DNA of 64,000 nucleotides from Cetorhinus maximus (taxonomy: Eukaryota). The position numbers and the translations under genes were made by a program. Below, piece after piece: positions 1 to 64,000 of this stretch. The stretch's first letter is position 1; each line of letters starts with the position of its first letter. The stretch lies in assembly GCF_964194155.1 (NCBI RefSeq), contig NC_135906.1:6572001-6636000 (forward strand), in the 5' to 3' direction. Under the pieces are notes generated by a model. It was not told the origin of the DNA. It searched no databases and saw only the letters and a program-made list of their open reading frames with translations.

Positions 1-1761
1 ATTTGTAGTCTCCACGAATGGGAATAGTTTGATCTGGTTTCATCACAGGGAGTGTGGGTACTGCCCATTCCAAAAATTGGACTGGCTGGATGATGCCCAG
101 CTTCACTAAGCGGCACAATTCTGCATCCACCTACTCCATTACGGCATAAGGCACAGGTCTAGCCTGAAAGAAACAGGGTATCACCCCCAAATCTACATAT
201 ATTTTTGTCTGTAAGCCTTTTGTCTTTCCCAGTTTATCTTGAAATACGCTGTCGTACATTCTTAACAGCTGAGGAATTCCTTCTGTTCTCACTTGAAAGA
301 TTTCTGACCAGTTGTGCCTAATTTTTTTGTAACTGGTCCTGGCCCAGAAGACCAGGCTCTTCATCCGTCACGATAACCACTGGCAGCCATAAGGACACAG
401 GGAAAGTGCCAATGCCTTTTAACTGTGTTGACTCTCCAGTGTACACCTTCAGTTGAACCGTGCTTTGCTACAGATTCAATGGCTCGTTTCGATAATTAAA
501 TGTCTGTTCTCCCACCCGTGTAGTCAAATTTCTTGTGTCTATCTCCATGACGAGAAACTTCCCATTCACTTGAGGGGGAATGTTTATTGGTTCAGTTTTT
601 GCTGATTTGACATTGTATAGGGAATAGGTATCATTATCAGCAGCTTCAGATCAATAATATTGTGCACTTCAAACTTCTTGGTCTGCTGTCTGATTGGCTG
701 TCTCAATTTCGCCCTGAATTACTTTATTATGTGCCCCTTCCTGTGGCTGTAATGGCATTCTGCCTGTTTAAATCTGCAGGTTTCCAGTACATGGTTACAC
801 ACACATCTGTAAAGGTAAATTTCTGAATTGTTTCGGAGATTCTTCCATTTTGCTTTTTCATTTTTTCAACAGCAGAGACTGTCTCCCGCTTCCCGGCTGT
901 CTGTGCGGTTTACGGGCCCCGCCCAGTGCTAGGTTCCCGCCCCACTGAAGAATGGCGCCATGTTGTACACTCTGTAAACCTGCGAGTCCCTCTCAGCCCG
1001 CTCCATCGCTAGCGCTATTTCCATGGCCCACTTCAAATCAATGTTAACATCAGCAAGTAAATGGTGCTGAATGGCATCGTCGTGAACGCCACAAACTAAC
1101 CGGTCCTGCAGCGTGTCATTGAGTGTATCTCCGAAGAGGCAGAGCTCCATCAATTGCTTCAACTTCGCTATATAGGTTGTGATGGACTCTTCTGGGGTCC
1201 CTATTCTGGAGTTAAACGTATGCTTCAGCTGAAAATACAACTTTATGAGGTTTACCGATTCACTATAAGGTTTAGAATTGGAGGCGTTCGGGGTTGTCAG
1301 ACTACAGGTGAGTTTATATTTGTTGCTAACACAGACTCTTAAAGGAATTGCTTTCTGCTTCTTCTTCACTGTTATTTCATTTGCCTTGAAATAAAAACCT
1401 GGGCGCTCTATGTACTGGCTCTGATCTTCCATGGCTGGGCCATACAGGTCGACTCTGCCAAAATGTGGCATGACTGGTGAGTATAATCTTCTAAAGAATT
1501 GATATACTCACATTCACAAGGCGAGGTGCAGCGTCGGAGCTATTCATCCTCATCGCCAAATGGAATGAACTTGATGTAACGGACAGGTTTCTTACCTGAA
1601 ACAGGTCACTTCATTCCACAGCTCATTTAGAAGCTACTTACTGGAAACAGATCCAAGACTAGAAAGCTCCACCCTCAGGATTACCCGCTCTGGGCTCATT
1701 CGTCAGAACAATCATGTGACCCCTAAAGGCAGTAGGAAAGGTTAAACCTAGAATCACTACA
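1..1761 (-). mobile_element. 5' part of a decayed short-LTR Ty3/Gypsy (Mag-like) retrotransposon: LTR, PBS, gag, protease, start of RT
   Basis: gag ORF 929-1471 (LQDRLVCGVHDDAIQHHLL), decayed zinc-knuckle region at about 720-810, protease remnant MEIDT at about 535-549, ARPVPYA, and RT start WAVP..KPD..IRGDYK. LTR at about 1561-1761; PBS at 1545-1558. Confidence 0.88.
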
Positions 1762-1799
1762 ACTTAAGAAAATGGCTTTGGATTTCCAATATTAAATTT

Positions 1800-2920
1800 C
1801 AGCTCATCTATTACTGGATGTCAGACAAGCAGTTGGATAGATGAGAGGCTGTGGAGGGGTTGAGGAATTGGATGGTGCGGTACATTTCCAGGAAAGTCTA
1901 GAAAAGACAGGCAGGGATTTGGGAGATGAGAACACTCTGACATGGGAGAGGAAAGGGAGGCTGGAGATGGGAAGCTTAATTACACGGGCAGCTGGGTCGA
2001 GGGTTTTTTTGTGAGCTGTCGGTAGTGATGGCAGGTTTGAAAGGGAGGGAGAAAGGACCTGAGGAGAGGAAATATTGAATATTAGACAGGAAGTGAAATT
2101 GAGTGGGGGGAAGGAGGTCATCATTTCAATGGGAATAGTGTTAAAGGAACATGATGTGATGTGTCGGGGACAAGATGTGGTCAGTGTGGGTCTGAGGAAA
2201 GTTAGAGAAAGTGGAGAAAGAAGCAGGTTCGGGGATATGCTGGCAGGGGAGGGGCTGAGCTACAGAGGATGTTTGGCCCGGGAGAGGTGAGGGGAGTGGC
2301 AGAGGCGGCTGATCGGTTGGACTTAATCTCTGTGACAAAAAAGTCCATGAGCTCTTTCACCTTGTTGGAGATGAAGGTGGTGGGGAGAGGGGTTTAGGAA
2401 GAGGGTTTGCAGTAGAGAAGAGGAGCTGGAGGGTTATCTGAGCATTGTAGCCTGATGCTGGAATAGTGATCAGCTTCGGATATGGTGATAGGACAGCCGG
2501 ACACAATCAGGGTGAATGCGGTAAAGCCGGCTCTGGTGTTGGCTAAAGCAATTGTTCAGCATGACTGTTCACGTCTGCGTCACTTGGGCTTATGGGAACA
2601 GAGATAAGGGCCGTAGCTGGAGATGGTCTGGGGAGAGAGAGAGGAATGGCTTTTTTGGGTCCTGGGGCATCACAGATGGAGGTGAGGGTGTGGTTGGGCA
2701 GATTGGGAGTTGCAGAAATGTTATGTTGAAAAGAGAGCCAAAGGGAGGTTAGTTGGGATTAGGAAATGGACACAGGAGGGAGTGGAGCTGGGAGGGGTAA
2801 GGGGATTTGGGAGGAGTGTGATACAAGGAAGTGATCGGTGATGGCCTTATCTGTGATCTACACGATGGGATTAGCGAGGCCGCGTCCGATGTCAAAGCTC
2901 ATCGACAATATCATGAACTC
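1800..2920 (-). mobile_element. Degenerate L2-like LINE ORF2 fragment (also about 19017-20137, 36234-37354 and 53450-54570)
   Basis: Minus-strand KKTLDP..LPISSLPFLSHV resembles the L2 RT-entry motif KKPSLDP..NYRPISLLPFLSK; strong C/T bias on the coding strand. Boundaries are approximate. Confidence 0.7.
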
Positions 2921-3651: not shown

Positions 3652-3969
3652 ATACAGCACAAGTTAGATACAGAGTAAATCTCCCTCTAGAGGGTCCCCC
3701 TAAAACACTCCCAGAGCATGTACAGCACGGGGTAGACACAGAGTAAATCTCCCTCTACAGTGTCCGCATAAAACACTCCCGGAGCAGGTACAGCACGGGG
3801 TTAGATACAGAGTAAAGCTCCCTCTCCACTGTCCCATCAAACACTCCGAGGACAGGTACAGCACGGTGTTAGATACAGAGTAAAGTTCCCTCCATACTGT
3901 TGCTATGCACCAATCCCAGGATAGGTACAGCACAGGGTTAGATACAGAGTAAAGCTCTCTGTACACTGT
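3652..3969 (+). repeat. 68-bp minisatellite, about 4.7 copies
   Basis: Unit GTACAGCACGGGGTTAGATACAGAGTAAAGCTCCCTCTACACTGTCCC..AAACACTCCC.. starts at 3652, 3720, 3788, 3856 and 3925. Confidence 0.92.
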
Positions 3970-4128
3970 TTCACTAATTTAAAATTGGGAGATAATTACA
4001 GGTTGTTGTTGTAGCAGTGTGAGAGTCTCCATTCCCCATCGCAGCATTTACCAGTCTGCACGCCAGACTCCCTGGGTCAGTGCCCACCAGTCATCCTCAT
4101 GGATCAATGAACAAAACCACATGAGATG

Positions 4129-4366
4129 ATTGGATTAATGGTGCCTTCAGCATGAGAACTTGTGGAGCTGAATTCAGTCAGGTGACACCAGAGCAACTCA
4201 GAGTGATTCCTATTGGTCCAAATAAAATTGGCCTTCCTGGTAATAAATCCATGAGTTCTGTCTGTCATTGGTGGAGATTGTGAAGATTTGGGCTGGTTAA
4301 TTGGTTCAATGTTGCTGCTTCTGGTCTCATTGGTGTCAGGTGAGTGCAGCTTGTGTGTACATAAGG
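4129..4366 (+). promoter_or_regulatory. Putative ZP3 proximal promoter (repeated in each unit)
   Basis: Six ATTGG (inverted CCAAT) motifs at 4129, 4212, 4227, 4267, 4300 and 4329; CAGGTG E-boxes at 4179 and 4337; TATA-like TACATAAG at about 4358-4365, upstream of the ATG. Confidence 0.6.
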
Positions 4367-4408
4367 TGCTGCTCGGTGGTTGAAGGGATGGTTGAGTTGT
4401 TTGGTATC

Positions 4409-7400
4409 ATGGGGGATTTTGTAGTGAGGGCTTTGTTCCCAGTGCTGGTGTTAGTTGGAGCTGTTTGTGGCACTGATACTTGGCAACAGTTTCTAGGCCA
4501 GAGCTTTACATGGGCCAGAGTCAGAGCCACCCCTGTGCCTCAGACAGTCTCTCCTCCTGGGCCTCCCTTTGGTTCCCATTTCCGTGTATCTCCACTGCAG
4601 ACTGTGATGGTGCAGTGTGGAGAGGAAAAGCTGCTGCTCAGGGTCCAGCTGGATTTATTTGGAACCAGGCACCTGATCAAAGCTGCTGACCTGACTCTGG
4701 GGACAGAAGGTTGTCGGCCAACAAGGATCTACTCTCAGAACCACACTGTCCTCTTTGACTATGGACTCCATGAGTGTGGCAGCAGGTTGCAGGTAATGGG
4801 AATCCTCAGCTCTTGCTCTAATCTTGGGCTGTAGATTGTTCCCCACCCTTCATTCCAACACTGGGTGAGATGTCAATGATATTGAGGAGATACCTGTCAC
4901 CTGCTTTCTAAAACCCCAAGTTAGCTTTCTATTGTGTATTGTACTTTGCTTTAACTTGTTTCTGAGTGTCTCCGAACTTGTGACAACAGCCCTATTGGTC
5001 TTGAACCACCTTTTTGGTTCCTCCAAACTTTGCCTTTTGTTGTTTTGAGGATTTTCGGCTCTCTTCCCCTCATTCAGATCGATCCAACTGGAGGCTTCGG
5101 TTTCAGTCCGGTTTAATCCAATTGAGTTGTGTCTTAAATGAAGAAAATGAAATGAGAATTGAAATTTATTGCACTAAAGAGGAACTCCACACTTCCCACT
5201 TTTCCTGTCATTGGAATAAATGGGGCCCTAGTTTCAAACTGTTCTATTTCCATGCTCCATATTACTGTCCAATTGTGGCTCCTTTTACTGTTAACTGAAG
5301 CTGTCCTTTTGTTGACTCCCTTTCCTATTCATGGATCCTGGTCTTGTTCTGATGATCTCACTCTTTGGATAAAGGGCTGAGGTTGCATAGCAACAAATAA
5401 CCAGATGAGGTCACATGGCCCCTCAAGCCTGTTCCCCAATCATTAGGATCCTGGCTGATCTTCTACACAACCTCCATGTTCCTGTCCTCTTAACATATAT
5501 TCTTAGATTCCCTTAAAGCCCCAAAATAAATCCATCTGCCTTGAATGTGTCCAATGACTGAGCATTCCCAGATCTCTGGAGTACAGAATTCCTAAGGTAC
5601 ATGATCTGCTGGATGAAGTAATTCCCTGTCACAATCTTAAATGACTGACCCCTGACCTGAGATGAACGCCCCAATAGTCAAGTCTCTCCAGTTGGGGGGA
5701 AGGCAGCCTCTTCACACTGACCCTGTCAATCCCCCTCAGAATTGTTTCCAGGGGATGGGATGACTTCATTGTTAACCCCTGTGGAGAACATTCTCATTTC
5801 AGATCAGTTCTTCATTCCTTAACCTGATTCTTTCAGATGGTTGGAGATTTCCTCATCTACACCACCCACCTGAACCACACCCCAGAGTATCATGGATCTG
5901 TCATTGTGAGAACGAATGGAGCTGTCGTTCCCATTGAGTGTCGTTATTTTAGGTGAGAATCTTTACTCGATTGTCAATAAGATCTACAGCTGCTGGTGGT
6001 CTCTGAAGTTGTCCTAAAATGACTCCCCTGCCTTTCCAGGAAGGGCAACGTGAGCAGTGACCCCATCAAGCCCACCTGGATCCCATTCATCTCCACCAAG
6101 TCTGGAGAAGGGCATCTGTCATTCTCTCTGCGCCTAATGAATGGTATGTGATGGGCGGAGGGGAGTGATTTCCTCTAGTCACTCACTGGGAGTTACAGCC
6201 ACTGTCTCTAACCCTTGTCCTCTTGTACTTCAGGTGACTGGCTTACAGAGCGTACTTCGACTGTCTACTACCTGGGTGAGCTCATTCACATTGAGGCCTC
6301 TGTTTCAATGACCAACCACATGCCCCTGAAGCTCTACATTGACCGCTGTGTAGCTACATTGAGCCCAGACAAGGATTCCACCCCGAGATACAGCATCATT
6401 GACCACAATGGGTAAGGATCTGTCTGCTTTCTCCAGCTGGTCCCATCTCAATGGCTTCACTTGATTCACTTCCTGTCTCTTTTTAATCTTTCTTCAGTTG
6501 CCTCCTGGACAGCAAAGCTGAGGACTCCTTTTCAACCTTTGTGTTGCCAAGAGACGAGCGGGAGCTGGACAAGCTCCGGTTTGACCTGGATGCGTTCCGT
6601 TTCCTTGGAGATGACCGTTCCTTGGTAAGAGGAAGCTGATCATTGGGGTCTCCATGTTGGGAGGGAGTCACTGAATCATGACTTGTGTTGAATGTGTCCC
6701 TCAGATTTTCATCACCTGTCACCTGAAAGTTGCTCCAGTTGATCAGAGGGATTCCAGGAACAAAGCTTGTACTTTCCAGAAGTTGCAGAATGTGTAAGTT
6801 CCCTCTCTCTCTCTCTCCCTCAGGGATGTGTTGTGTGGGGTTGTGATGCACAACCTGGTTGATGGGCTGTTTCTCTTGTTTAGCTGGACCCCACTGGAGG
6901 CATGGAGCACTGACATTTGTGCCTGTTGCCATGTGGGTAACTGTGGTGCCACAAGGGAGTTGTGGTTTGGTCCCAGAGGAAGGAGAGATCTTGTACCTGA
7001 AGCTGGTAGGACATTGATCCTCTAGATGTTGGATGTCCCACTTTCCCCTCACTAACTGAAATGTTTGATGTTGCAGAGAGTGAAGCTGGATTGAAGTGGG
7101 AGGGTGAGGCCTCACTTGGACCCCTGCTCATTCTGGATACTGATGTGACCAAGCTGGCAACAGAGTCCCTGAATGAGGCTGAGCGAAGGATGCAGGAGAG
7201 GTCTCCAGGTGGTGAGTTGGCCGACTGCTGGTTTCCATTTTCCCCCTCCGTGTTTCCTTCACTAACCATTGGTTTCTCATTGCTTTGTAGGTGTGGAGTC
7301 TGAGGTGGTCCTGATCGTGGCCCTGACTGTGACAGCTGTCTCTCTGATCTCTGCTTCATTGCTGGCCTTGTTCCTGTACAGGAAACACAAGCAAACTCTG

Positions 7401-7412
7401 GTCAACCAGTGA
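4409..7412 (+). CDS. zp3: Zona pellucida sperm-binding protein 3 (ZP3/ZPC)-like egg-coat protein, copy 1, 9 exons
   Basis: Exons 4409-4792, 5837-5952, 6040-6143, 6234-6411, 6498-6624, 6705-6793, 6884-7005, 7077-7211 and 7291-7412. All introns are GT-AG with consistent phases; 1377 nt gives 458 aa (alternative in-frame ATG at 4388). Motifs: signal peptide, [82 protein letters not shown], furin site RGRR, LGPLLIL patch and a C-terminal TM helix. Confidence 0.95.
5390..5750 (-). mobile_element. CR1-like LINE 3' end remnant in ZP3 intron 1 (in every unit)
   Basis: ggcccctcaagcctgttcccc..ggatcctggctgatc and the following sequence resemble the antisense 3' end of chondrichthyan CR1 LINEs. Recognised from memory, not aligned. 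Confidence 0.55.
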
Positions 7413-7422
7413 CCAAATGATC

Positions 7423-9480: not shown

Positions 9481-9507
9481 GGTTACTTGAAGTCTGGCTC
9501 AGCCTTA

Positions 9508-12500
9508 GGTAGTTACCAGTAAGAGGGATGCAGTCATTGGAAAGGGATTTATGTAATCAACTCCTTTAGAAACTACATGCTTGAGCCAGGACCACAACGA
9601 GAAAGCGTCAACCCCAGGATTACCCGCAGTTAGGACACATTCGTCTGTACAATCACATGACTTCTAAAGGCAGTAGGGAAGGTTATACCTACAATCACGA
9701 CATTTCCTCCCCCTTTAGTTTTCTTTACATTTCCTATTTACAAAGAATATTTTAATCCACCACATGTACATATATGCTTTGGTCATGTGGTTAAATATTA
9801 AATCTTTCTCATACATTTAGAGCAGCGTAGCTCCATCACTTCAGACTCTCCCACTGGATCGACCTGATCAGGAACTGCAGTATCAGGGACATCCTTCGAC
9901 AGTAGTAGTTCAGAATTTGGGACTTCAACAGAGACATCAGGTATGTCTATTCAAGGTCGATCCGTCACCTCAGGGAATAAAGGTTCAAGATGTCTTGTGG
10001 AATAGCTGATTGTTGGAATGTCCCTCTCAACCTTAGATGATCCACATATTTTCAAACAATCTGGTCTTTCACTTCCACTTGGAATGACAAGGGTCCAGTT
10101 TCAGATAAAATTATACCAGGAACCCAACTAGGTCCATTTCCAAAATTCCACAGGAAAACTGAATTTCCCACAGTAAATCTTCGAACTTTACTATGAATAC
10201 GGTGAATTAATTTCTGACTACTCTAATTCTTCTCTACCTTCCCCTTGAAGTTTGGAAACACCAGACCAACCGTGTATGAAGGCGACATTTCATCACTAGT
10301 TCAGATGGTGTTGAACCCGTAGTTGCTGAGGAGCCGTACCTTAATTGAGAAGAAAGCATGAAAGTCAAATTTCTAAAGTACCTTTGGATAAAACTTCTTC
10401 ATTCCTGATGTGAAAGTTTGCACTGCTCTTCCAGCTAACCCATTTGATGAGGGGTGATATTGTGCTGTTTAATATGTTTCATTCCATTTAAACTCATGAA
10501 TCTCTGAAATTCTGTACTCGTGAATGCTGGACCGTTATCCTAAATAATGATGTCCGCTAGGCCACGTATACTGAAACATTGGCAAGGCTTTTCAATAGTT
10601 GCGCATGATGTCAGTGATCTAACTTCATACACATCCATTCACTTGGAATGTGCATTGATGATCAATAAAAACATGGTGGAATGGCTTTATCCTCCCTCAT
10701 CAGTATAGTCCATCACTCTGGTGAAATGTTGTTTGTGCAGACACTGGTGTCATTTCTTCACTCCAAATATTACTGATAAACCTTCCTTTTCAAGTTGTAA
10801 ATTGCCCTTCATGGTTTCAGAGAGGGTTCTCGAGACATAGCCGGTTGGCCTTTCGGAACCAACTTCCATCATGTGTGATAACAGCGCTCCCACACCGTAA
10901 GGAGATGCATCAAGCACCACAGGTTAATATTAATTCTTTTGATGGGTCATAATGTACCAGTAAACATGACGTATGTAATAGCTTCTTGACTTTCATGAAG
11001 GTGCTTCTCGTTGTGCATTCCATGACCAAACATGGTTCTTTTCGAACAGTACATGTAATGGTTCAAACACTGTTGACAAGTTTGACAAGAAGTGACTATA
11101 ACCATTTATCGTTCCCAAAAAAGACTTGAGTTCAGTGACACTGATCGGAGAGGGTGCCATTCAATTCCCCTGACTTTCTCCTCTACTCCTTTGGCATCCG
11201 CTCGGTGACACAAGTAAGCAAAGTATGTCGCTTGGAAGGCATATTTCTCTTCTTCCAGCTGTACACTAGCTTCCAAAAATCATCTTCAAACCTTTTCTAG
11301 GTTGACCAACTGTTCGGCTTCCACTGACCCTGTGATTAGGACATCATCCAGGTATACCACTACGTGGGGAAGTACTTGCAGTGGACTTTCCATGGTCCTT
11401 TGGAAGATTGCACATACAGATGATATAACAAAGGGTAGGCGTGTATATTGTTGCAGGCCCTTGTGCATGTTAATGGTTTCGTGCTGTCCAGCTTTAGCTG
11501 TTGGGATGCATGGCTCATGTCCAGTTTGGATTAAGATTTTCGTCCTGCTAGTTTAGCGTACAAATCGTCAATCCTCGGGATAGGATATTTATCTAGTTTA
11601 CGTCACGAAGAGATATTAATGTCTATAATGTTATTGGAAATCACTTTTAAAATGGAATTGTAAGGTGTCTTGTGTCAGTGTGTTTGACTGTGTGAAAATT
11701 AATTAGATTAAAGCCAGCCAGTCTGGGAGCTTTGATGTACAGTCGTTCTGAGATGTTAATTAGATGAACATAAGAAGAAGGTAAAGTGTAAATTTGCATT
11801 TGTTGATTAAAGGATTAAAGGGCAGGACTAAAATCTTGCACCTAGCTAGAAGACGCCAAGCAATGTGTTTACTTTTTTTCAGCTTACTAATAAAATTGGT
11901 GGAATGAAAGGATATTATTGTTAGGAGATGTAACATTAACAGCCTGGTGATACAATGGAAAATTTACATTCAAAGAAAACACTAGGTATAAACAGAAAAG
12001 AGTTTGTGTGTTTAAGGCAAAGGCATTTATGATCTAACCAGCCTGTAAGCCCTACAACTGTGTCTGCAAAGGAACCAAATTGCAAGGAACCTCATTTTGA
12101 ATTTGTAAGGCCAAATATGCTTTTCCTCGTGTTTGTTTAAAGTCTATGGTTATTATTGGCTTGGTGGAGATTTACCTGGAAGTGATAAATTTGCAGATTT
12201 GTTTAAAAGTTACGATGGTATTAATTTGTAGATGTGTAAGTCGTTAATTTGTTGTTAAGTTAATAAATGTTTAATTTAGTTTGATATAAAAACATTTTGA
12301 GGCACAGTGGTCTTATTCCTGAATTCAGAGCTGCAAATTAAATATACCATTTGAAAATACAGGTTATGAAAGTTGTTCAAGTTTCCCTCTGGGATTTAAA
12401 CAACTCAGCCTTTACCAAGTGCTGAGTCATAATAATTGGGGGCTCTTGGCAGGATATTATTTGTAATTTTTTGCTTAGTTCAGAATGGGTGAATCTTAAG

Positions 12501-15500
12501 GATAGGAGTACGAGAAGCACTTTGTATTCAGGAGTTGGTGAAGCTTTTTGTTAGTTGTGAGGCTGCAAGATGGCTTTGGAAATTGCTAAGACTTGTCTGG
12601 GAGTAGAAGATATAACTCTGATTGTGTTACAAATAGTATCCAAGGATAAGTTAACAGATTTGGCAGATAAGTTAAAATTAGTGTTGCCTGTAGGGGTGAA
12701 GAAAGCAGATATAATTAAAGGTACAGCACAGCCTCTACAGTTGGAAGTGATACCTGACACCAGTGAGTCACAGCTGGAGGTAGTGAGACTTGAGTTACAA
12801 ATGAAGAGGCTGTAACTTGAACAATCAAAGGGACTGAAAAAAATCTTGAATTAGAAGCAAAGGAAAGAAAAGGGCATTTCAAAGGGAACAAGCAGAAAGG
12901 CAGGAGAAAGAAAGGAAGCTGGACCTGGGATTTCAGGCAAGAGAGAAGGATAAAGAAAGAGTGGTAAGGGAAAGAGAGAAGGAAAGAGAAAGAGAATAAT
13001 TTCTTAAAAGGTTAGAATTTCAAAAAGAGACCTGAGATTCGGAGGAGAGTTCTGATGATGAAAAATCCTTTAACCGAAAGCCCAGTGGGGAGATGTTTAG
13101 GATTGTACAAGCTGTTCCAAAGTTTAAGGAAAAAGATGTTGATGCATTCTTTATTTCATTTGAGAAGATAGCGAAAATGATGAAATGGTCACTGGAGTAT
13201 TGGACATTGGTGTTACAATCCAGGTTGTTGGGTAGAGCAGATGAGCCTTTTTCTATCTGAAGAGGTATCAGTGAAAAATGATGTGTTGAAAAAGGCTATT
13301 TTGAGTGAATAGGAGTTAGTTCCTGAGGCCTACATGCAGAAATCTGGGAATATAAGAAAACAGGCTGGGCAAACTTATATATTTACTTTGAGAGAGTAAA
13401 ACAATATAATTTTGACTGGTGGATACCAGCATTAAAAATAGAGACAACCTTTGCAGCTCTTAGAGAAGAAATTCTTCTGGAAGTATTTAAAGTTTCAATT
13501 CCTTCGGTAGTGTGAACTCAAGTGGGGAACAGAGAGTTCAAATGGTAAGACAAGAAGCAGTTCAAGCTGATGATTATGAGTTAGTACACAGAGCTAAACA
13601 TTTTTTCCTTTAGCCTTTTAAATCCAAAAAGGATGGAAAGTGGGAAGGTGAAAGGAAGTGCGTAGTTAGGGAAGAGAAAGGGTAGCTGGAAATTCCCAGA
13701 AAGTTTTTTCTCAGAATAAAAAGGAAGGTGCTGAGGAGTGACTTTTGAAAATTGAAAAGTGAGGTGTTTTCATTGTAATAAAGTGGGGCATACAACGTCA
13801 GTGTGTTGGAAATTATAGAGAAAATCTGTTGGAATTATTGGGGTGCAGAAAAGTTCTGGAAAGAAAAGTACTGTGGGTTCTGAGGTTCAGGCACAGGAAA
13901 AACAATTGTTTGAGAACAGGTAAAGCAGTAAGTTTCAGTAAAAGGTAAAGGAGTGGGAATGTGTTCACAATTTGCCCAGGAGAAATCGGAGGGGCAAGTC
14001 GCAAAAATGTTAAAGACTTTGTGTGTGAAGGGAAAGTCTTTCCTTGTGTCCAGGGTGGAGTAGGTAAAAATGTTAACATTTTAAGAGACACAGGGGCTAG
14101 TCAATCATTAATGTTGTGGGGTAGTGATATTTGTGTTGAGAGGGATTACTGCAGGAGCAGTTGATAATAAGCGGGGTTTGTGGAGATGCTAAACCTTCCA
14201 CCCTTTTGGAAGATAAATTTCAAGAGCAAATGGAAGAAAGGGGAAGTTATTGTTGGAGTTGTGGGGAAATTGCCCTTTGCAAGGTTTCAAATTATTTTGG
14301 ATAATGATATAGTTGGGCCAGAGATTTGTGTGATGCCTCTGGTAGTTGAGTAGCCTGTAGAAGCGTTTTCAACAGAGGTGTTACAGAGAGAGCATCTTGG
14401 ATTGTTTCCAGCTTGTGTGGTAAAGAAATCACACGCTCATAGATTGAAACAAGAACAAACAAGCAGGGGAAGCAGCTCAAAGGCAAGAAGAAGGTGTCAA
14501 AATCCAATCAGCTGGCCATGTATTTAATAACACTGTTCAGGAAGAAAGCACAATTCAGCAGAAATGTTTAACTCAAAGAGGTGAGTGGAGTTACAGAAAA
14601 AATGATTTGCAATTAAAAAAGTTATAACAGGCAGCTTACTCAGAATAAGAGGCAACATGCATTCCAGTATGTTATTACCTTAAGGGTGATATGTAAATGA
14701 GAAAATAGAGGCCAGATTATGTCTCAGCAAATGAAAGTTGGGGCGAGATGCAGCAGATTGCTGGCCCATTAGGTTATAGAAATGAAATGTTGAGAATTGA
14801 TCATGAAATTCCAAATGGGTGGGGTGGGGGGAGTTGGTGGGTGATATTTAGGAATTAGGAAAACAGAGGAAAAGATACAGAGGTTTCTTTTTTGGCCAGG
14901 ATTGCACATGGATGTAGTGAAGTTCTGTAGAACATATCACACTTGTCTGGAAATAGGGAAACCACAAGCATTGATTAAGCCGGCACATTTAATTCCAATA
15001 CCAGCATTTGAAGAAACTTTAACTAGGGTCACCATTGATTGTGTAGGAGCCCTCCCTCAGACAAAAAGTGGAAATCAGTACTTACTGACAATCATTGATG
15101 TGTCTACCAGGTTCCCTGAAGCGATACCTTTAAGAAATATTACAACCAAGAAGATTGTGGAGGAGTTCACTAAATCTTTTACAAGATATGGTTTACCTAA
15201 GGAAATTCAATCAGATCTGGAGTCAAATTTCATCTCACAGCTATTAAAGGAAGTAATGAACAGTTAGGGGATAAAACAGTTTAAGTCAACACTTATCATC
15301 CAGAGTCACAAGGAGCTTTGGAAAGATTGCATCACACTTTAAAACTGTGATAAGAGCCATACTATCAGTATTATCCACAACATCGGGATGCAGGAATTAC
15401 ATTCTTGTTATTTGCTATTAGAGACGCTCCTAATGCATTGCCTGGTTTTAGCCTTTCTGAACTAGTTTATGGTCATGAGGTAAGGGGACCACTGAAATTG

Positions 15501-18500: not shown

Positions 18501-18978
18501 GCGTTCAGGGTTGTCAGACTACAGGTGAGTTTATATTTGTTGCTAACACAGACTCTTAAAGGAATTGCTTTCTGCTTCTTCTTCACTGTTATTTCATTTG
18601 CCTTGAAATAAAAACCTGGGCGCTCTATGTACTGGCTCTGATCTTCCATGGCTGGGCCATACAGGTCGACTCTGCCAAAATGTGGCATGACTGGTGAGTA
18701 TAATCTTCTAAAGAATTGATATACTCACATTCACAAGGCGAGGTGCAGCGTCGGAGCTATTCATCCTCATCGCCAAATGGAATGAACTTGATGTAACGGA
18801 CAGGTTTCTTACCTGAAACAGGTCACTTCATTCCACAGCTCATTTAGAAGCTACTTACTGGAAACAGATCCAAGACTAGAAAGCTCCACCCTCAGGATTA
18901 CCCGCTCTGGGCTCATTCGTCAGAACAATCATGTGACCCCTAAAGGCAGTAGGAAAGGTTAAACCTAGAATCACTACA
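9508..18978 (-). mobile_element. Decayed short-LTR Gypsy (Mag-like) element interrupted by a nested element; own segments 9508-11600 and 17195-18978
   Basis: 3' LTR at about 9508-9702 and PPT at 9703-9716 (tttcctccccctttt on +). Integrase motifs (NAHSKW, NGPAFTSTEF, YHPSSNGLA) at about 10400-10670, RNase H DASPYGVGAVLSH at about 10870-10912, RT YLDD in ORF 11286-11468. gag at 18146-18688 and 5' LTR at about 18778-18978. Many stops and frameshifts. Confidence 0.88.
11601..17194 (+). mobile_element. Decayed Gmr1-like Gypsy LTR retrotransposon (gag-PR-IN-RT-RH) nested in the RT of the minus-strand element
   Basis: TSD TTTA at 11597-11600 and 17195-17198. 5' LTR at about 11601-12434; PBS TGGGGGCTC at 12437 (tRNA-Pro type). 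gag from 12570, CFHCNKVGHTTSVC knuckle at 13765-13806, protease LRDTGASQS at about 14080. Integrase (14902-15900: IDCVGALP, TRFPEAIPL) lies before RT (16100-16850: LKGYWQV, YIEDL) and RNase H (IDASDNAIGA, about 16980). 3' LTR remnant at about 17041-17194. Confidence 0.9.
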
Positions 18979-41800: not shown

Positions 41801-41846
41801 CTTGTTCCTGTACAGGAAACACAAGCAAACTCTGGTCAACCAGTGA
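38843..41846 (+). CDS. zp3: ZP3/ZPC-like gene, copy 3
   Basis: Same structure at offset +34434; no disabling change seen. Confidence 0.95.
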
Positions 41847-49900: not shown

Positions 49901-52900
49901 TTATGGTCATGAGGTAAGGGGACCACTGAAATTGATTCATGAGAAATTGGTGTGTCAAAATTCAGAAACTCTTCTCCTAGATTACATATCTAATTTCAGG
50001 GAAAGATTGAATAGAGCACATGAGTTGTCTCGGGAAGATTTAAAGATGTCACAGCTAGGAATGTAAATGAAGGCAGACAAGAAAGCAACAGCTCACCAGC
50101 ATTGTACCTAGAGAGAAAGTGCTAGTTCTGTTACCAATCCTAGGTGATTATTTAAATGCAAGGTTTAGTAGGGCCTTGCAGGGTGAAAAGAAATCGAGTG
50201 AAATATATGATTTAATAAATACCCCAGATAGAAGAAAGAAGCAAAGGGTGCGTTATGTAAATATGTTTAAAATGTACTTTGACAGGGAAAAGGAACAAAA
50301 AGAGGTATTAGTGATGATGGATGATGCAGGACTCTGAAATTGATTTTTCTCTAATCAAATTAGATAATGAGGGGGTACTTGAAAATTTAAATGAAAGATC
50401 AAGTTATCTTCCAAGCAAGATCAAAGTCATTTAGAAAAGCTATTGCACTCACACAAACCTATTTGTGGGAATAAGTTGGGGAAGACCCATTTAGCAATAC
50501 GTGATGTATCTACACAAGTTTCATCTTAAATAAGGCAATATCCTTATAGATTAAATCCGGCAAAGTTATCACCAATACAAAAAGAATTTGATTTCATGCT
50601 TCAAAATGATATCGTTGAGTCTAGGTGCAGCAACTGGAGTTCGCCTATTGTACTTGTCCTGCAGTTGGATGGAACCCAAAGTCTATGTGTGGACTATCGA
50701 AAGGTGAATGCTGTGAAATAAGCGGATTCATTTCCTATGCCACGGTTAGAATATTGCATTGAGAAAGTGGGACAATCGAAGTTTATCACAAAGATTGAAA
50801 TGCTAAAAGGATATTGGCAGGTATGGTTGTCGGAAAGAGCAAAGGAGATATCGGCTTTTCTGATACCAAATGGACTACATCAGTTTAAAGTCATGCCATC
50901 TGGTTTGCAGAATGCACCTGCAACATTGCAAAGACTGACAAACAAAATAATTGCAGGTCTAAGCAATTGCGCTGCTTATACTGAAGATCTGATAGTTTTC
51001 CATCAGAGGTGGGAGGAGCATTTACAGCATCTGGAAAATTATTCACTCGACTACAAGAAGCTAATTTGGTGATGAACTTGGCTAAAAGTGAATTTGCAAA
51101 AGTGCAGGTTACGTATCTAGGCCATACCATTGGGCATGGTAAGGTGGCTCTGGGAGATGCAAAACTCAAGGATATCGTGGATTTCCCAGTGCCTACAATA
51201 AAACGGGAGGTTTTGCGATTTCTGGGGCACGAGTGGGCTTTACTGGCAATTACTACCAAACTTTAGCCAAGCGGTAGCTCCACTGACTGACCTATTAAAA
51301 ATGAACAATAGCTTCAATGGACACTGGAGTGTCAGAAGCCATTTGACAGTTTGAAAACTGTATTGACCACTTATGTGGTACCCAATTATGCCAAGCAATT
51401 TATGTTGGCCATTGACGCGAGTGATAATGCCATTGGGGCCATACATTTAGAACAGGGTGACACCGGAATTGAATTATATAAAAAGCCTCTTGAGGCTTGG
51501 TGGTTTTATTCCTGAATTCAGAGCTGCATCTCAAAACTACCAATTGAAAATATAGGTTATGACAGTTGTTCAAGTTTCCCACTGGGATTTAAACAACTCA
51601 GCCTTTACCAACTGCTGTGTCATAGGATTTAGCAGCCTTGTTCACAGTTAATTTGTAGTCTCCACGAATGGGAATAGTTTGATCTGGCTTCATCACAGGG
51701 AGTGTGGGTACTGCCCATTCCAAAAATTGGACTGGCTGGATGATGCCCAGCTTCACTAAGCGGCACAATTCTGCATCCACCTACTCCATTACGGCATAAG
51801 GCACAGGTCTAGCCTGAAAGAAACAGGGTATCACCCCCAAATCTACATATATTTTTGTCTGTAAGCCTTTTGTCTTTCCCAGTTTATCTTGAAATACGCT
51901 GTCGTACATTCTTAACAGCTGAGGAATTCCTTCTGTTCTCACTTGAAAGATTTCTGACCAGTTGTGCCTAATTTTTTTGTAACTGGTCCTGGCCCAGAAG
52001 ACCAGGCTCTTCATCTGTCACGATAACCACTGGCAGCCATAAGGACACAGGGAAAGTGCCAATGCCTTTTAACTGTGTTGACTCTCCAGTGTACACCTTC
52101 AGTTGAACCGTGCTTTGCTACAGATTCAATGGCTCGTTTCGATAATTAAATGTCTGTTCTCCCACCCGTGTAGTCAAGTTTCTTGTGTCTACCTCCATGA
52201 CGAGAGGCTTCCCATTCACTTGAGGGGGAATGGTTATTGGTTCAGTTTTTGCTGATTTGACATTGTATAGGGAATAGATATCATTATCAGCAGCTTCAGA
52301 TCAATAATATTGTGCACTTCAAACTTCTTGGTCTGCTGTCTGATTGGCTGTCTCAATTTCGCCCTGAATTACTTTATTATGTGCCCCTTCCTGTGGCTGT
52401 AATGGCATTCTGCCTGTTTAAATCTGCAGGTTTCCAGTACATGGTTACACACACATCTGTAAAGGTAAATTTCTGAATTGTTTCGGAGATTCTTCCATTT
52501 TGCTTTTTCATTTTTTCAACAGCAGAGACTGTCTCCCGCTTCCCGGCTGTCTGTGCGGTTTACGGGCCCCGCCCAGTGCTAGGTTCCCGCCCCACTGAAG
52601 AATGGCGCCATGTTGTACACTCTGTAAACCTGCGAGTCCCTCTCAGCCCGCTCCATCGCTAGCGCTATTTCCATGGCCCACTTCAAATCAATGTTAACAT
52701 CAGCAAGTAAATGGTGCTGAATGGCATCGTCGTGAACGCCACAAACTAACCGGTCCTGCAGCGTGTCATTGAGTGTATCTCCGAAGAGGCAGAGCTCCAT
52801 CAATTGCTTCAACTTCGCTATATAGGTTGTGATGGACTCTTCTGGGGTCCCTATTCTGGAGTTAAACGTATGCTTCAGCTGAAAATACAACTTTATGAGG

Positions 52901-56058: not shown

Positions 56059-59000
56059 ATGGGGGATTTTGTAGTGAGGGCTTTGTTCCCAGTGCTGGTG
56101 TTAGTTGGAGCTGTTTGTGGCACTGATACTTGGCAACAGTTTCTAGGCCAGAGCTTTACATGGGCCAGAGTCAGAGCCACCCCTGTGCCTCAGACAGTCT
56201 CTCCTCCTGGGCCTCCCTTTGGTTCCCATTTCCGTGTATCTCCACTGCAGACTGTGATGGTGCAGTGTGGAGAGGAAAAGCTGCTGCTCAGGGTCCAGCT
56301 GGATTTATTTGGAACCAGGCACCTGATCAAAGCTGCTGACCTGACTCTGGGGACAGAAGGTTGTCGGCCAACAAGGATCTACTCTCAGAACCACACTGTC
56401 CTCTTTGACTATGGACTCCATGAGTGTGGCAGCAGGTTGCAGGTAATGGGAATCCTCAGCTCTTGCTCTAATCTTGGGCTGTAGATTGTTCCCCACCCTT
56501 CATTCCAACACTGGGTGAGATGTCAATGATATTGAGGAGATACCTGTCACCTGCTTTCTAAAACCCCAAGTTAGCTTTCTATTGTGTATTGTACTTTGCT
56601 TTAACTTGTTTCTGAGTGTCTCCGAACTTGTGACAACAGCCCTATTGGTCTTGAACCACCTTTTTGGTTCCTCCAAACTTTGCCTTTTGTTGTTTTGAGG
56701 ATTTTCGGCTCTCTTCCCCTCATTCAGATCGATCCAACTGGAGGCTTCGGTTTCAGTCCGGTTTAATCCAATTGAGTTGTGTCTTAAATGAAGAAAATGA
56801 AATGAGAATTGAAATTTATTGCACTAAAGAGGAACTCCACACTTCCCACTTTTCCTGTCATTGGAATAAATGGGGCCCTAGTTTCAAACTGTTCTATTTC
56901 CATGCTCCATATTACTGTCCAATTGTGGCTCCTTTTACTGTTAACTGAAGCTGTCCTTTTGTTGACTCCCTTTCCTATTCATGGATCCTGGTCTTGTTCT
57001 GATGATCTCACTCTTTGGATAAAGGGCTGAGGTTGCATAGCAACAAATAACCAGATGAGGTCACATGGCCCCTCAAGCCTGTTCCCCAATCATTAGGATC
57101 CTGGCTGATCTTCTACACAACCTCCATGTTCCTGTCCTCTTAACATATATTCTTAGATTCCCTTAAAGCCCCAAAATAAATCCATCTGCCTTGAATGTGT
57201 CCAATGACTGAGCATTCCCAGATCTCTGGAGTACAGAATTCCTAAGGTACATGATCTGCTGGATGAAGTAATTCCCTGTCACAATCTTAAATGACTGACC
57301 CCTGACCTGAGATGAACGCCCCAATAGTCAAGTCTCTCCAGTTGGGGGGAAGGCAGCCTCTTCACACTGACCCTGTCAATCCCCCTCAGAATTGTTTCCA
57401 GGGGATGGGATGACTTCATTGTTAACCCCTGTGGAGAACATTCTCATTTCAGATCAGTTCTTCATTCCTTAACCTGATTCTTTCAGATGGTTGGAGATTT
57501 CCTCATCTACACCACCCACCTGAACCACACCCCAGAGTATCATGGATCTGTCATTGTGAGAACGAATGGAGCTGTCGTTCCCATTGAGTGTCGTTATTTT
57601 AGGTGAGAATCTTTACTCGATTGTCAATAAGATCTACAGCTGCTGGTGGTCTCTGAAGTTGTCCTAAAATGACTCCCCTGCCTTTCCAGGAAGGGCAACG
57701 TGAGCAGTGACCCCATCAAGCCCACCTGGATCCCATTCATCTCCACCAAGTCTGGAGAAGGGCATCTGTCATTCTCTCTGCGCCTAATGAATGGTATGTG
57801 ATGGGCGGAGGGGAGTGATTTCCTCTAGTCACTCACTGGGAGTTACAGCCACTGTCTCTAACCCTTGTCCTCTTGTACTTCAGGTGACTGGCTTACAGAG
57901 CGTACTTCGACTGTCTACTACCTGGGTGAGCTCATTCACATTGAGGCCTCTGTTTCAATGACCAACCACATGCCCCTGAAGCTCTACATTGACCGCTGTG
58001 TAGCTACATTGAGCCCAGACAAGGATTCCACCCCGAGATACAGCATCATTGACCACAATGGGTAAGGATCTGTCTGCTTTCTCCAGCTGGTCCCATCTCA
58101 ATGGCTTCACTTGATTCACTTCCTGTCTCTTTTTAATCTTTCTTCAGTTGCCTCCTGGACAGCAAAGCTGAGGACTCCTTTTCAACCTTTGTGTTGCCAA
58201 GAGACGAGCGGGAGCTGGACAAGCTCCGGTTTGACCTGGATGCGTTCCGTTTCCTTGGAGATGACCGTTCCTTGGTAAGAGGAAGCTGATCATTGGGGTC
58301 TCCATGTTGGGAGGGAGTCACTGAATCATGACTTGTGTTGAATGTGTCCCTCAGATTTTCATCACCTGTCACCTGAAAGTTGCTCCAGTTGATCAGAGGG
58401 ATTCCAGGAACAAAGCTTGTACTTTCCAGAAGTTGCAGAATGTGTAAGTTCCCTCTCTCTCTCTCTCCCTCAGGGATGTGTTGTGTGGGGTTGTGATGCA
58501 CAACCTGGTTGATGGGCTGTTTCTCTTGTTTAGCTGGACCCCACTGGAGGCATGGAGCACTGACATTTGTGCCTGTTGCCATGTGGGTAACTGTGGTGCC
58601 ACAAGGGAGTTGTGGTTTGGTCCCAGAGGAAGGAGAGATCTTGTACCTGAAGCTGGTAGGACATTGATCCTCTAGATGTTGGATGTCCCACTTTCCCCTC
58701 ACTAACTGAAATGTTTGATGTTGCAGAGAGTGAAGCTGGATTGAAGTGGGAGGGTGAGGCCTCACTTGGACCCCTGCTCATTCTGGATACTGATGTGACC
58801 AAGCTGGCAACAGAGTCCCTGAATGAGGCTGAGCGAAGGATGCAGGAGAGGTCTCCAGGTGGTGAGTTGGCCGACTGCTGGTTTCCATTTTCCCCCTCCG
58901 TGTTTCCTTCACTAACCATTGGTTTCTCATTGCTTTGTAGGTGTGGAGTCTGAGGTGGTCCTGATCGTGGCCCTGACTGTGACAGCTGTCTCTCTGATCT

Positions 59001-59062
59001 CTGCTTCATTGCTGGCCTTGTTCCTGTACAGGAAACACAAGCAAACTCTGGTCAACCAGTGA
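56059..59062 (+). CDS. zp3: ZP3/ZPC-like gene, copy 4
   Basis: Same structure at offset +51650 (ATG at 56059, TGA at 59060-59062); no disabling change seen. Confidence 0.95.
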
Positions 59063-61157: not shown

Positions 61158-63250
61158 GGTAGTTACCAGTAAGAGGGATGCAGTCATTGGAAAGGGATTT
61201 ATGTAATCAACTCCTTTAGAAACTACATGCTTGAGCCAGGACCACAACGAGAAAGCGTCAACCCCAGGATTACCCGCAGTTAGGACACATTCGTCTGTAC
61301 AATCACATGACTTCTAAAGGCAGTAGGGAAGGTTATACCTACAATCACGACATTTCCTCCCCCTTTAGTTTTCTTTACATTTCCTATTTACAAAGAATAT
61401 TTTAATCCACCACATGTACATATATGCTTTGGTCATGTGGTTAAATATTAAATCTTTCTCATACATTTAGAGCAGCGTAGCTCCATCACTTCAGACTCTC
61501 CCACTGGATCGACCTGATCAGGAACTGCAGTATCAGGGACATCCTTCGACAGTAGTAGTTCAGAATTTGGGACTTCAACAGAGACATCAGGTATGTCTAT
61601 TCAAGGTCGATCCGTCACCTCAGGGAATAAAGGTTCAAGATGTCTTGTGGAATAGCTGATTGTTGGAATGTCCCTCTCAACCTTAGATGATCCACATATT
61701 TTCAAACAATCTGGTCTTTCACTTCCACTTGGAATGACAAGGGTCCAGTTTCAGATAAAATTATACCAGGAACCCAACTAGGTCCATTTCCAAAATTCCA
61801 CAGGAAAACTGAATTTCCCACAGTAAATCTTCGAACTTTACTATGAATACGGTGAATTAATTTCTGACTACTCTAATTCTTCTCTACCTTCCCCTTGAAG
61901 TTTGGAAACACCAGACCAACCGTGTATGAAGGCGACATTTCATCACTAGTTCAGATGGTGTTGAACCCGTAGTTGCTGAGGAGCCGTACCTTAATTGAGA
62001 AGAAAGCATGAAAGTCAAATTTCTAAAGTACCTTTGGATAAAACTTCTTCATTCCTGATGTGAAAGTTTGCACTGCTCTTCCAGCTAACCCATTTGATGA
62101 GGGGTGATATTGTGCTGTTTAATATGTTTCATTCCATTTAAACTCATGAATCTCTGAAATTCTGTACTCGTGAATGCTGGACCGTTATCCTAAATAATGA
62201 TGTCCGCTAGGCCACGTATACTGAAACATTGGCAAGGCTTTTCAATAGTTGCGCATGATGTCAGTGATCTAACTTCATACACATCCATTCACTTGGAATG
62301 TGCATTGATGATCAATAAAAACATGGTGGAATGGCTTTATCCTCCCTCATCAGTATAGTCCATCACTCTGGTGAAATGTTGTTTGTGCAGACACTGGTGT
62401 CATTTCTTCACTCCAAATATTACTGATAAACCTTCCTTTTCAAGTTGTAAATTGCCCTTCATGGTTTCAGAGAGGGTTCTCGAGACATAGCCGGTTGGCC
62501 TTTCGGAACCAACTTCCATCATGTGTGATAACAGCGCTCCCACACCGTAAGGAGATGCATCAAGCACCACAGGTTAATATTAATTCTTTTGATGGGTCAT
62601 AATGTACCAGTAAACATGACGTATGTAATAGCTTCTTGACTTTCATGAAGGTGCTTCTCGTTGTGCATTCCATGACCAAACATGGTTCTTTTCGAACAGT
62701 ACATGTAATGGTTCAAACACTGTTGACAAGTTTGACAAGAAGTGACTATAACCATTTATCGTTCCCAAAAAAGACTTGAGTTCAGTGACACTGATCGGAG
62801 AGGGTGCCATTCAATTCCCCTGACTTTCTCCTCTACTCCTTTGGCATCCGCTCGGTGACACAAGTAAGCAAAGTATGTCGCTTGGAAGGCATATTTCTCT
62901 TCTTCCAGCTGTACACTAGCTTCCAAAAATCATCTTCAAACCTTTTCTAGGTTGACCAACTGTTCGGCTTCCACTGACCCTGTGATTAGGACATCATCCA
63001 GGTATACCACTACGTGGGGAAGTACTTGCAGTGGACTTTCCATGGTCCTTTGGAAGATTGCACATACAGATGATATAACAAAGGGTAGGCGTGTATATTG
63101 TTGCAGGCCCTTGTGCATGTTAATGGTTTCGTGCTGTCCAGCTTTAGCTGTTGGGATGCATGGCTCATGTCCAGTTTGGATTAAGATTTTCGTCCTGCTA
63201 GTTTAGCGTACAAATCGTCAATCCTCGGGATAGGATATTTATCTAGTTTA
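61158..63250 (-). mobile_element. 3' part (LTR, IN, RH, RT) of the fourth Mag-like Gypsy copy
   Basis: Offset +51650 of 9508-11600; YLDD ORF at 62936-63118. Confidence 0.86.
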
Positions 63251-64000
63251 CGTCACGAAGAGATATTAATGTCTATAATGTTATTGGAAATCACTTTTAA
63301 AATGGAATTGTAGGGTGTCTTGTGTCAGTGTGTTTGACTGTGTGAAAATTAATTAGATTAAAGCCAGCCAGTCTGGGAGCTTTGATGTACAGTCGTTCTG
63401 AGATGTTAATTAGATGAACATAAGAAGAAGGTAAAGTGTAAATTTGCATTTGTTGATTAAAGGATTAAAGGGCAGGACTAAAATCTTGCACCTAGCTAGA
63501 AGACGCCAAGCAATGTGTTTACTTTTTTTCAGCTTACTAATAAAATTGGTGGAATGAAAGGATATTATTGTTAGGAGATGTAACATTAACAGCCTGGTGA
63601 TACAATGGAAAATTTACATTCAAAGAAAACACTAGGTATAAACAGAAAAGAGTTTGTGTGTTTAAGGCAAAGGCATTTATGATCTAACCAGCCTGTAAGC
63701 CCTACAACTGTGTCTGCAAAGGAACCAAATTGCAAGGAACCTCATTTTGAATTTGTAAGGCCAAATATGCTTTTCCTCGTGTTTGTTTAAAGTCTATGGT
63801 TATTATTGGCTTGGTGGAGATTTACCTGGAAGTGATAAATTTGCAGATTTGTTTAAAAGTTACGATGGTATTAATTTGTAGATGTGTAAGTCGTTAATTT
63901 GTTGTTAAGTTAATAAATGTTTAATTTAGTTTGATATAAAAACATTTTGAGGCACAGTGGTCTTATTCCTGAATTCAGAGCTGCAAATTAAATATACCAT
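63251..64000 (+). mobile_element. 5' LTR of the fourth Gmr1-like copy, cut by the window end
   Basis: Offset +51650 of 11601-12350. Confidence 0.85.

Follow-up and report, generated by a model that had tools for sequence, protein, structure and literature searches.

A near-identical tandem array of ZP3-like genes in the basking shark, probably a young part of an older multicopy cluster

Amplification of the egg-coat gene ZP3 is known in teleosts and usually regarded as a teleost matter, and the shark cluster is little described. Teleost copy numbers of 12-44 have been reported, with tandem ZP3/ZPC copies amounting to 20-22 in catfish, 39 in stickleback, 44 in salmon and 15 in zebrafish (PMC13704971). 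In the accessible parts of this catfish paper, text and supplement give no shark copy numbers, the words 'identical' and 'concerted' are not used, and copy number was not significantly related to chorion thickness (rho 0.286, p 0.493). In Antarctic notothenioids up to 37 copies of one ZP type occur and copy number tracks transcript level (PMC5059455). In the mouse, envelope thickness is sensitive to ZP3 dose, with 2.7 µm in heterozygous nulls vs 6.2 µm (PMC8391237). Our literature search found no description of a shark ZP3 array. Arrays of rDNA, histone and U2 snRNA genes consist of head-to-tail units under concerted evolution.

The basking-shark locus shares with the latter arrays head-to-tail units that are homogenised across the spacer, and paralogs that resemble one another more within a lineage than across lineages. 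It differs from them in that four units are seen, other paralogs of the same species are 4-5% diverged, and the gene is tissue-specific and contains introns. The teleost arrays belong to the same gene family and form tandem clusters too, and the same dosage hypothesis is already published for them (PMC13704971), whereas the shark unit of 17.2 kb is 99.9% identical between copies, introns and dead transposons included. Lineage-specific copy gain is common to the notothenioid expansion, which, however, was measured by qPCR, is tied to freezing and, as far as the text is available, lacks the word 'tandem' and an array anatomy (PMC5059455).

Our preferred reading, to which we assign a probability of roughly 0.6, is that the window, i.e. 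the whole stretch of 64,000 bp analysed here, represents the most recent sub-array within an ancient multicopy ZP3 cluster of sharks, renewed by unequal crossing-over. The cluster was probably kept multicopy for egg-coat output, a role of dosage that we infer.

The array and its gene

In the window, a unit of 17,217 bp is repeated head to tail 3.72 times; unit 3 counts 17,216 bp owing to a single 1-bp indel. Self-BLAST gave three diagonals only, at an offset of one period (1-46,784 vs 17,218-64,000, 99.876% identity), two periods (99.828%) and three periods (99.887%). Since the self-match starts at base 1 and stops at base 64,000, neither end of the array lies inside the window, as the first-pass annotation had stated. 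The duplication junction was not located. The window contains no flanking gene that would give the synteny by which, together with the phylogenetic clade, the ZP3.1, ZP3.2 and ZP3.3 subfamilies are told apart (PMC6262864). The near-identity of the units (99.83-99.89%) extends to non-coding DNA, and both tested microsatellites have the same length in every unit. A sensitive self-BLAST of one unit returned two LTR pairs and a minisatellite and nothing else. Rfam and tRNA scans of the window yielded no matches, nor did a sigma-70 promoter scan, which is not meaningful for a shark.

1..64000, no strand: tandem array of 3.72 units, with arbitrary unit starts at 1, 17218, 34435 and 51651
4409..7412, + strand: ZP3-like gene copy 1, nine exons
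4409-4792, 5837-5952, 6040-6143, 6234-6411, 6498-6624, + strand: exons 1-5 of copy 1
6705-6793, 6884-7005, 7077-7211, 7291-7412, + strand: exons 6-9 of copy 1
21626..24629, + strand: ZP3-like gene copy 2, coding sequence equal to copy 1
38843..41846, + strand: ZP3-like gene copy 3, coding sequence identical to the other copies
56059..59062, + strand: ZP3-like gene copy 4, coding sequence identical to the other copies

Each unit carries one intact nine-exon ZP3-like gene. Four complete copies lie in the window, in agreement with the earlier claim of at least four, one per unit. All eight introns of each copy are GT-AG, and the coding sequence of 1,377 nt encodes 458 residues without internal stop and is free of nucleotide differences in six of six pairwise comparisons. 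All four copies have a 6-residue N-terminal deletion ahead of ZP-N, which is absent from the basking-shark paralog P0230 and from four further full-length homologs compared.

The assignment to a ZP3-type egg-coat gene was borne out. A Pfam search, run exon by exon with six other exon pieces too short for a match, placed ZP-N on exon 1 (PF23344, 31.2 bits, cutoff 24.7) and ZP-C on exon 4 (PF00100, 47.3 bits, cutoff 24.6). The homolog P0121 (87% to the window protein) matched chicken ZP3 (3NK3) with an E of 4.7e-105 and fish ZP3 with 1.8e-71, but ZP2 only with 2e-4; by this sequence comparison via P0121, the array gene is closer to ZP3 than to ZP1/2/4. The protein has 13 cysteines; those at 70, 102, 123 and 163, at 240, 262, 308 and 325, and at 345, 347, 348 and 353 occupy conserved alignment columns, and the C-terminal ZP3 cysteine cluster is present. 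A furin site R-X-R-R lies at residues 364-367, the G-P-L columns of an EHP-like motif are conserved in the array protein and its shark homologs, and peaks at residues 1-23 and 419-448 would, from hydropathy alone, fit a signal peptide and a transmembrane segment. Judged from these features, the predicted product is a complete ZP3 precursor with signal peptide, ZP-N, ZP-C, furin site, EHP and membrane anchor, a layout in common with mammalian ZP3, although mouse ZP3 is single copy with 8 exons and the shark gene is multicopy with 9 (PMC8391237). As side observations, an upstream in-frame ATG at 4388 would lengthen the product by 7 residues, which are present in catshark and zebra shark homologs, and a polyA signal of copy 1 is found at about 7423-7428.

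The source had been suspected to be a cartilaginous fish, and it is indeed a lamniform: all 307 of 307 aligned residues of the array protein are identical to RefSeq entries for Cetorhinus maximus that are annotated as 'zona pellucida sperm-binding protein 3-like' (XP_078387202/203/204/206 and XP_078387208). The identical protein stands under at least four accessions, plus one variant, XP_078387208, that departs at its N- and C-termini, and several identical ZP3-like accessions sit on one 29.2-Mb sequence; the multicopy state is thus already within the public annotation. These models lack exon 1, with the signal peptide and half of ZP-N, and 23 residues including the furin site, both of which are encoded by the window and likewise by full-length shark homologs. 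The window corrects truncated basking-shark gene models, and it marks a locus of probably variable copy number. Truncated ZP3-like models are frequent in Carcharodon and Cetorhinus and may be pseudogenes or annotation faults. Over ZP-C, the array protein shares 95.1-96.3% of its residues with seven other Cetorhinus models. Homogenisation is therefore local, and the family-wide homogenisation of rDNA or histone arrays was not found in the basking shark; the earlier likening to these arrays was overstated.

Nested retrotransposons and the divergent tract

LTR-retrotransposon sequence makes up 9,421 of the 17,217 bp of a unit (54.7%), so that the earlier estimate of more than half dead transposon stands. 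Two elements are present per unit, B nested in A and both dead, with Pfam matches to RT, RNase H and integrase.

9558..18978, - strand: dead element A of Ty3/Gypsy type, running across the arbitrary unit boundary
9558-9702, - strand: 3' LTR remnant of element A, with a purine tract at 9703-9713
11601..17194, + strand: dead LTR element B, lying within the RT of element A
49208..52278, no strand: divergent tract of 3,071 bp with 38 substitutions and 1 indel (1.27%)
1790..2900, no strand: probable decayed LINE fragment, by motifs

Beyond the purine tract, element A comprises RNase H and RT pieces, is interrupted by element B and continues with its 5' part to a 5' LTR ending at 18978. Its LTR pair differs by a K2P of 0.26 over 143 bp; the 3' LTR lacks its outer end, and a target-site duplication could not be recovered. 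An origin of the array junction by recombination between these LTRs was considered and not adopted, as the outer ~58 bp of the 3' LTR and any target-site duplication are gone. Element B is flanked by a target-site duplication of 4 bp (11597-11600 and 17195-17198), has a 3' LTR shortened to 17043-17194 (K2P of the pair 0.13 over 149 bp) and contains 36 stops across its aligned part. We take it to be a Gmr1-like Ty3/Gypsy retrotransposon, whose traits it shows: LTRs, a short target-site duplication, an integrase domain placed ahead of RT and RNase H, and relatives carrying a SCAN domain. A Pfam search of the LINE-like fragments, which also occur at about 5370-5750 (intron 1) and 8780-9480, gave no supporting match, and their class is presumed from motifs.

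The window has 52 variable columns, 51 of substitution and one of indel, with 53 minor-allele events. The first-pass annotation had described only scattered SNPs between units over most of their length; the differences are not evenly scattered, since 39 of the 53 events fall inside 49,208-52,278, whereas the maximum in any 3.1 kb was 13 in 20,000 uniform permutations. Without this tract the units diverge by 0.02-0.08%, about 0.05%. Five further variants private to unit 4 follow the tract at 53,262-55,985 and stop 74 bp before the ATG. The tract crosses the B/A insertion junction, and because this junction is locus-specific, the donor must have been another copy of this same unit. At four variable LTR sites the tract equals element B's own 5' LTR at two, the majority type at one and neither at one. 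Transitions and transversions number 20 and 18 in the tract vs 12 and 2 in the background, a contrast on which we place no weight (Fisher p 0.052).

A tract diverged by 1.27%, against some 0.05% elsewhere, indicates that the region already had multiple copies well before its most recent expansion. The two options offered earlier, very recent amplification or concerted evolution, are better combined: a recent expansion (0.02-0.08%) lies atop an older multicopy state, as seen from the 1.27% tract and from the clustering by order described below. The nested transposons serve as internal clocks for array turnover in a slowly mutating vertebrate, with 26% and 13% for the LTR pairs, 1.3% for the tract and 0.05% for the background. 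We use relative ages only: at the epaulette-shark rate of 7e-10 per generation (PMC10587355), the tract would be ~9 million generations old, which is implausible for a long-lived species.

False duplication in the assembly, or a mis-joining of haplotypes where only one or two copies are real, would suit the extreme likeness of the units and the equal length of both tested microsatellites, and a switch between haplotypes could account for the abrupt tract. This is very improbable, given that four distinct unit sequences exceed two alleles, that 51 substitution columns stand against one indel column, with transitions in 12 of 14 background changes, that ancestral states are common to the tract and the 5' LTR, and that sets of identical copies exist in other shark assemblies too. 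The exact number and order of units may still be wrong in the assembly.

In the reading we prefer, unequal crossing-over between adjacent units would recently have multiplied one variant, marked by the 6-residue deletion, and overwritten most of the older unit type, with the tract as its remnant. The transposons would be passengers duplicated along with the gene. Selection may maintain many working copies, as growing oocytes would need much ZP3 to polymerise into the envelope; this is the weakest step.

ZP3-like genes in other sharks and in rays

Among 8,000 candidates scored, 11 other shark groups had 8-101 ZP3-like sequences each vs 1-6 per ray group, counts that take in isoforms, fragments and a few other species and that, with a shark query and an E cutoff of 1e-120, may underrate rays. 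Heptranchias had 101, Scyliorhinus 42 (two species), Heterodontus 27, Carcharodon 14 and Cetorhinus 10. Multicopy ZP3 was found in every shark order sampled, and with teleosts also multicopy, amplification is less exceptional than had been assumed.

The paralogs group by lineage and not by ancient orthology. The nearest neighbour belonged to the same order for 78 of 83 cluster representatives, and to the same species for 62 of 79, another species for 17. Order labels change seven times on the tree, the minimum possible, vs a mean of 55.9 after shuffling. The lamniform clade (support 100/95) includes the window protein on a terminal branch of 0.009; carcharhiniform, heterodontiform and sawshark copies do not each form a single clade. 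Within species, median ZP-C identity is 91-99% in 11 of 12 shark species, and identical proteins under several accessions occur also in Stegostoma and Mustelus. The pattern would fit birth-and-death evolution in which copies are homogenised locally, and not concerted evolution across the genome. Independent expansion, repeated from few copies, would yield a similar tree.

Neutral drift of copy number, in which a crossover-prone cluster expands one unit by chance and extra copies are tolerated, is unlikely but has several points in its favor. At 0.05% divergence intact copies are expected without selection, so selection on these four copies is not demonstrated: the lack of coding variants was suggestive of purifying selection on all 52 columns but not significant after tract removal (P=0.27), and the invariant 5.8-kb block across the gene was not significant (P 0.12-0.36). 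The unit carries its 55% dead cargo along, many relatives appear truncated, and the available parts of the teleost study report no significant link of copy number with thickness (PMC13704971). The recurrence of multicopy ZP3 in all sampled shark orders and in teleosts, and the high within-species ZP-C identity, argue against drift.

Should the shark cluster be old, large and under constant renewal, as we prefer to read it, dosage of egg-coat genes arose in parallel to teleosts or earlier, and the contrast of sharks with rays would provide a comparative test of the dosage idea, which was non-significant in teleosts. A further-reaching proposal, which we hold tentatively and with some doubt, is that sharks, unlike rays, retain a large tandem ZP3 family from their early history, each lineage replacing copies by fresh sub-arrays; gene number would then be under selection, vary among individuals and go with envelope thickness or oocyte output, and the window would show one such replacement under way, with part of the displaced unit still in it. 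The shark egg envelope is thick compared with that of rays; our literature search on this difference gave no quantitative source. The zona pellucida of catshark follicles thickens, as reported in the available parts of two studies (PMC10794776, PMC5932020).

Selective spread of a particular ZP3 variant, acting on gamete recognition or envelope properties and not on total dose, is improbable. The deletion found in the four array copies and in none of the homologs compared, and the distance of 4-5% to other basking-shark models, would speak for it, but the deletion lies outside the ZP module and the terminal branch is short.

A lamniform-specific adaptation to oophagy, where masses of unfertilised eggs as embryo food would require more egg-coat protein, is very improbable. 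Millions of small ova in the ovary of a basking shark, which Matthews is said to have described in 1950, would count for it. Oophagy occurs in Lamniformes (PMC10015161) and the window is lamniform, but non-lamniform counts are equal or higher (Heptranchias, Scyliorhinus and Heterodontus vs Carcharodon and Cetorhinus).

Two features lie upstream of the gene.

3653..3969, + strand: minisatellite of 68 bp, 4.6 copies with 82% matches, upstream of every gene copy
4109..4408, + strand: putative promoter by motif density, recurring in each unit

The putative promoter contains three E-boxes (4118, 4179, 4337) and six CCAAT/ATTGG boxes (4129, 4212, 4227, 4267, 4300, 4329). It is the densest CCAAT window of the unit, with 0.92 boxes expected (Poisson P 4e-4 for a motif picked post hoc). 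CCAAT boxes reportedly have a precedent in zebrafish zp genes.

Array structure and the ZP3-like gene

Compared with itself, the whole window matches from its first base to its last when offset by one period (99.876% identity), two periods (99.828%) or three (99.887%). It consists of nothing but tandem units with a period of 17,217 bp, unit 3 being one base shorter; the 17,217-bp array proposed in the first-pass annotation was confirmed by this self-comparison within the window (99.83-99.89%), the matches reaching both window ends. A duplication junction was sought in the window and not found, and Rfam and tRNA scans of the window gave no match.

On our reading of unit 1, the gene has nine exons on the plus strand. 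All eight introns were GT-AG and the 1,377-nt CDS had no internal stop in each of the four complete copies, whose CDSs were mutually identical, in agreement with the earlier description of one intact ZP3-like gene per unit. Two of eight scanned exon pieces matched Pfam above cutoff, exon 1 to ZP-N and exon 4 to ZP-C. The predicted 458-residue precursor showed a hydrophobic N-terminus, a transmembrane segment, eight core cysteines plus a ZP3-type cluster of four, three N-glycosylation sequons and a furin site at residues 364-367. By homology the gene is assigned to ZP3, because its full-length horn shark homolog (87% identity to the window protein) matched chicken ZP3 (E 4.7e-105) far better than ZP2 (2e-4).

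The array protein equalled basking-shark models XP_078387202/203/204/206 at 307/307 aligned residues and fell inside a lamniform clade (support 100/95), which bears out the cartilaginous-fish origin at first considered probable. These models lack exon 1 and 23 residues including the furin site; since exon 1 and the furin-site residues are present in other sharks' full-length proteins, the latter support the nine-exon model. The multicopy state is already discernible in public annotation, as truncated models, because several accessions equal the array protein. Another basking-shark protein, P0234 (XP_078387208), array-identical over most of its length with a differing C-terminal tail, is a candidate edge unit.

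Noncoding sequence and the divergent tract

The unit carries the following features:

3653-3969: minisatellite of 68-bp repeats immediately 5' of the putative promoter, same in all units
9,558 to 18,978, minus strand: element A, Ty3/Gypsy-type, across the arbitrary unit boundary
11,601-17,194: element B, inserted in the reverse transcriptase of A, with a 4-bp target-site duplication

The minisatellite is presumably a widespread shark repeat. Six CCAAT-type boxes lie within 300 bp upstream of the ATG against 0.92 expected, the motif having been picked after inspection; CCAAT boxes have a zebrafish precedent. The same 300 bp hold three E-boxes, and FIGLA is described as binding E-boxes of ZP genes in PMC13704971.

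Elements A and B, together 54.7% of the unit, are both dead, B because its aligned segments hold 36 stops; more than half of the unit is indeed dead transposon, as had been estimated. The LTR pair of A has a K2P of 0.26, and the LTR remnants of B differ by 0.13. In B the integrase precedes RT and RNase H, and its relatives carry SCAN domains.

Differences between units, first described as scattered SNPs, are sparse outside one tract (2-9 bases in 11,722, 0.02-0.08%), but 39 of 53 minor-allele events (52 columns) are concentrated at 49,208-52,278 (1.27%), against a maximum of 13 in 20,000 permutations under uniform scatter; past unit position 12,350 the comparison is between three units. The allelic diversity reported for another species, the epaulette shark (0.2%; PMC10587355), exceeds the between-unit difference outside the tract. 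With the tract set aside, the absence of coding variants was not significant (P=0.27).

The tract derives from another copy of the unit, since it crosses the B/A junction, which is unique to this unit. Four sites vary in the 3' LTR of B; the tract agrees with the 5' LTR at two of them, with the majority type at another and with neither at the last. Unit 3 scored higher for 4/5 intact reference polyproteins (e.g. 947 vs 874 bits), through one extra aligned segment, possibly a threshold effect. The tract looks like a real older lineage rather than noise. This implies that there are two types of unit, about 25 times as old as the most recent expansion, or else an ancient allelic haplotype.

After the tract, unit 4 has five more private variants (53262-55985), ending shortly ahead of the ZP3 ATG; towards the gene, divergence falls stepwise from 1.3% to 0.2% to 0. 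The sole variant common to two units, in intron 1 (window 5155 and 56805; units 1 and 4 vs 2 and 3), could reflect sub-lineages or a period of higher order.

ZP3 copies across sharks

Exon 1 as query returned 83 proteins. With the full-length homolog as query, 8,000 candidates were scored, and 92 clusters passed a cutoff of E 1e-120. Member counts treat identical copies as one and also take in isoforms, fragmentary sequences and a few proteins from other species; they were Heptranchias 101, Scyliorhinus 42 (two species), Pristiophorus 38, Chiloscyllium punctatum 34, Mustelus 32, Heterodontus 27, Stegostoma 25, Hemiscyllium 19, Carcharodon 14, Cetorhinus 10, C. plagiosum 9 and Rhincodon 8, with 1-6 sequences per group in rays and skates. 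Most copies of a species lie on a single chromosome-scale sequence.

Trees grouped the copies by lineage. With 102 rows, no non-lamniform species contributing more than 6, species labels took 28 changes against a minimum of 23 and 81.8 when shuffled. The analysis was repeated on 83 representatives with at least 150/168 ZP-C residues, which avoids bias from listing cluster members and omits unnamed, bacterial-labelled and most turtle rows. There, the nearest neighbour was of the same order for 78/83 and of the same species for 62/79, and order labels took 7 changes, the minimum. The orectolobiform, lamniform and hexanchiform copies were each recovered as a single supported clade, unlike those of carcharhiniforms, heterodontiforms and sawsharks.

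The "rDNA-like" homogenised amplification suggested initially holds for the near-identical units of the window but not for seven other basking-shark models, which are only 95-96% identical to the array protein; homogenisation within the basking shark is thus local.

Identical proteins occur under at least four accessions in Stegostoma and Mustelus. Consecutive accession runs recur across several scaffolds for the Mustelus proteins P0125-P0128, and consecutive accessions alternate for P0149/P0152 of Stegostoma, which may point to higher-order repeats containing several genes or to pairs of isoforms from identical genes. The Carcharodon model P0215 fuses C2H2 zinc fingers and ZP-C, suggesting that the shark ZP3 cluster adjoins a cluster of zinc-finger genes, or that the model is mis-joined. 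Two shark ZP3-like proteins, P0002, labelled Salmonella enterica (1.4-kb contig, 92% to the window protein, grouping with lamniform sharks), and P0113, labelled Aeromonas veronii (90 aa), look like contamination of bacterial assemblies.

Mechanism, dosage and precedents

The simplest account would be that sharks have an old ZP3 cluster where unequal crossing-over time and again multiplies a single unit and wears down others. The window would be a recent sub-array of this cluster, tagged by a 6-residue deletion common to the array copies. Selected ZP3 dosage is plausible, because half the ZP3 gives half the envelope thickness in mouse (PMC8391237) and transcript level follows copy number in notothenioids (PMC5059455); across teleosts the correlation of copy number with chorion thickness was not significant (PMC13704971). 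Oophagy as cause of the family fails, because other sharks hold as many copies.

For teleosts, tandem amplification of ZP3 and a dosage explanation for it are already published (12-44 copies; PMC13704971). No description of shark ZP3 arrays was found in literature on shark ZP genes and ZP concerted evolution, a search leaving most subscription journals uncovered, nor by term search in the accessible text of PMC8455134, PMC6262864, PMC8830517, PMC12155184 and PMC3554528, the last of which places one elephant-shark Zp3 next to Pax6.2. The array is a real, well-formed case of a phenomenon that is known elsewhere but seems little described in this group. Turtle ZP3-like clusters (P0070-P0083) have up to 61 members from several species, on an 85-Mb chromosome; a table in a catfish paper lists 8 ZP3 for the red-eared slider (PMC13704971).
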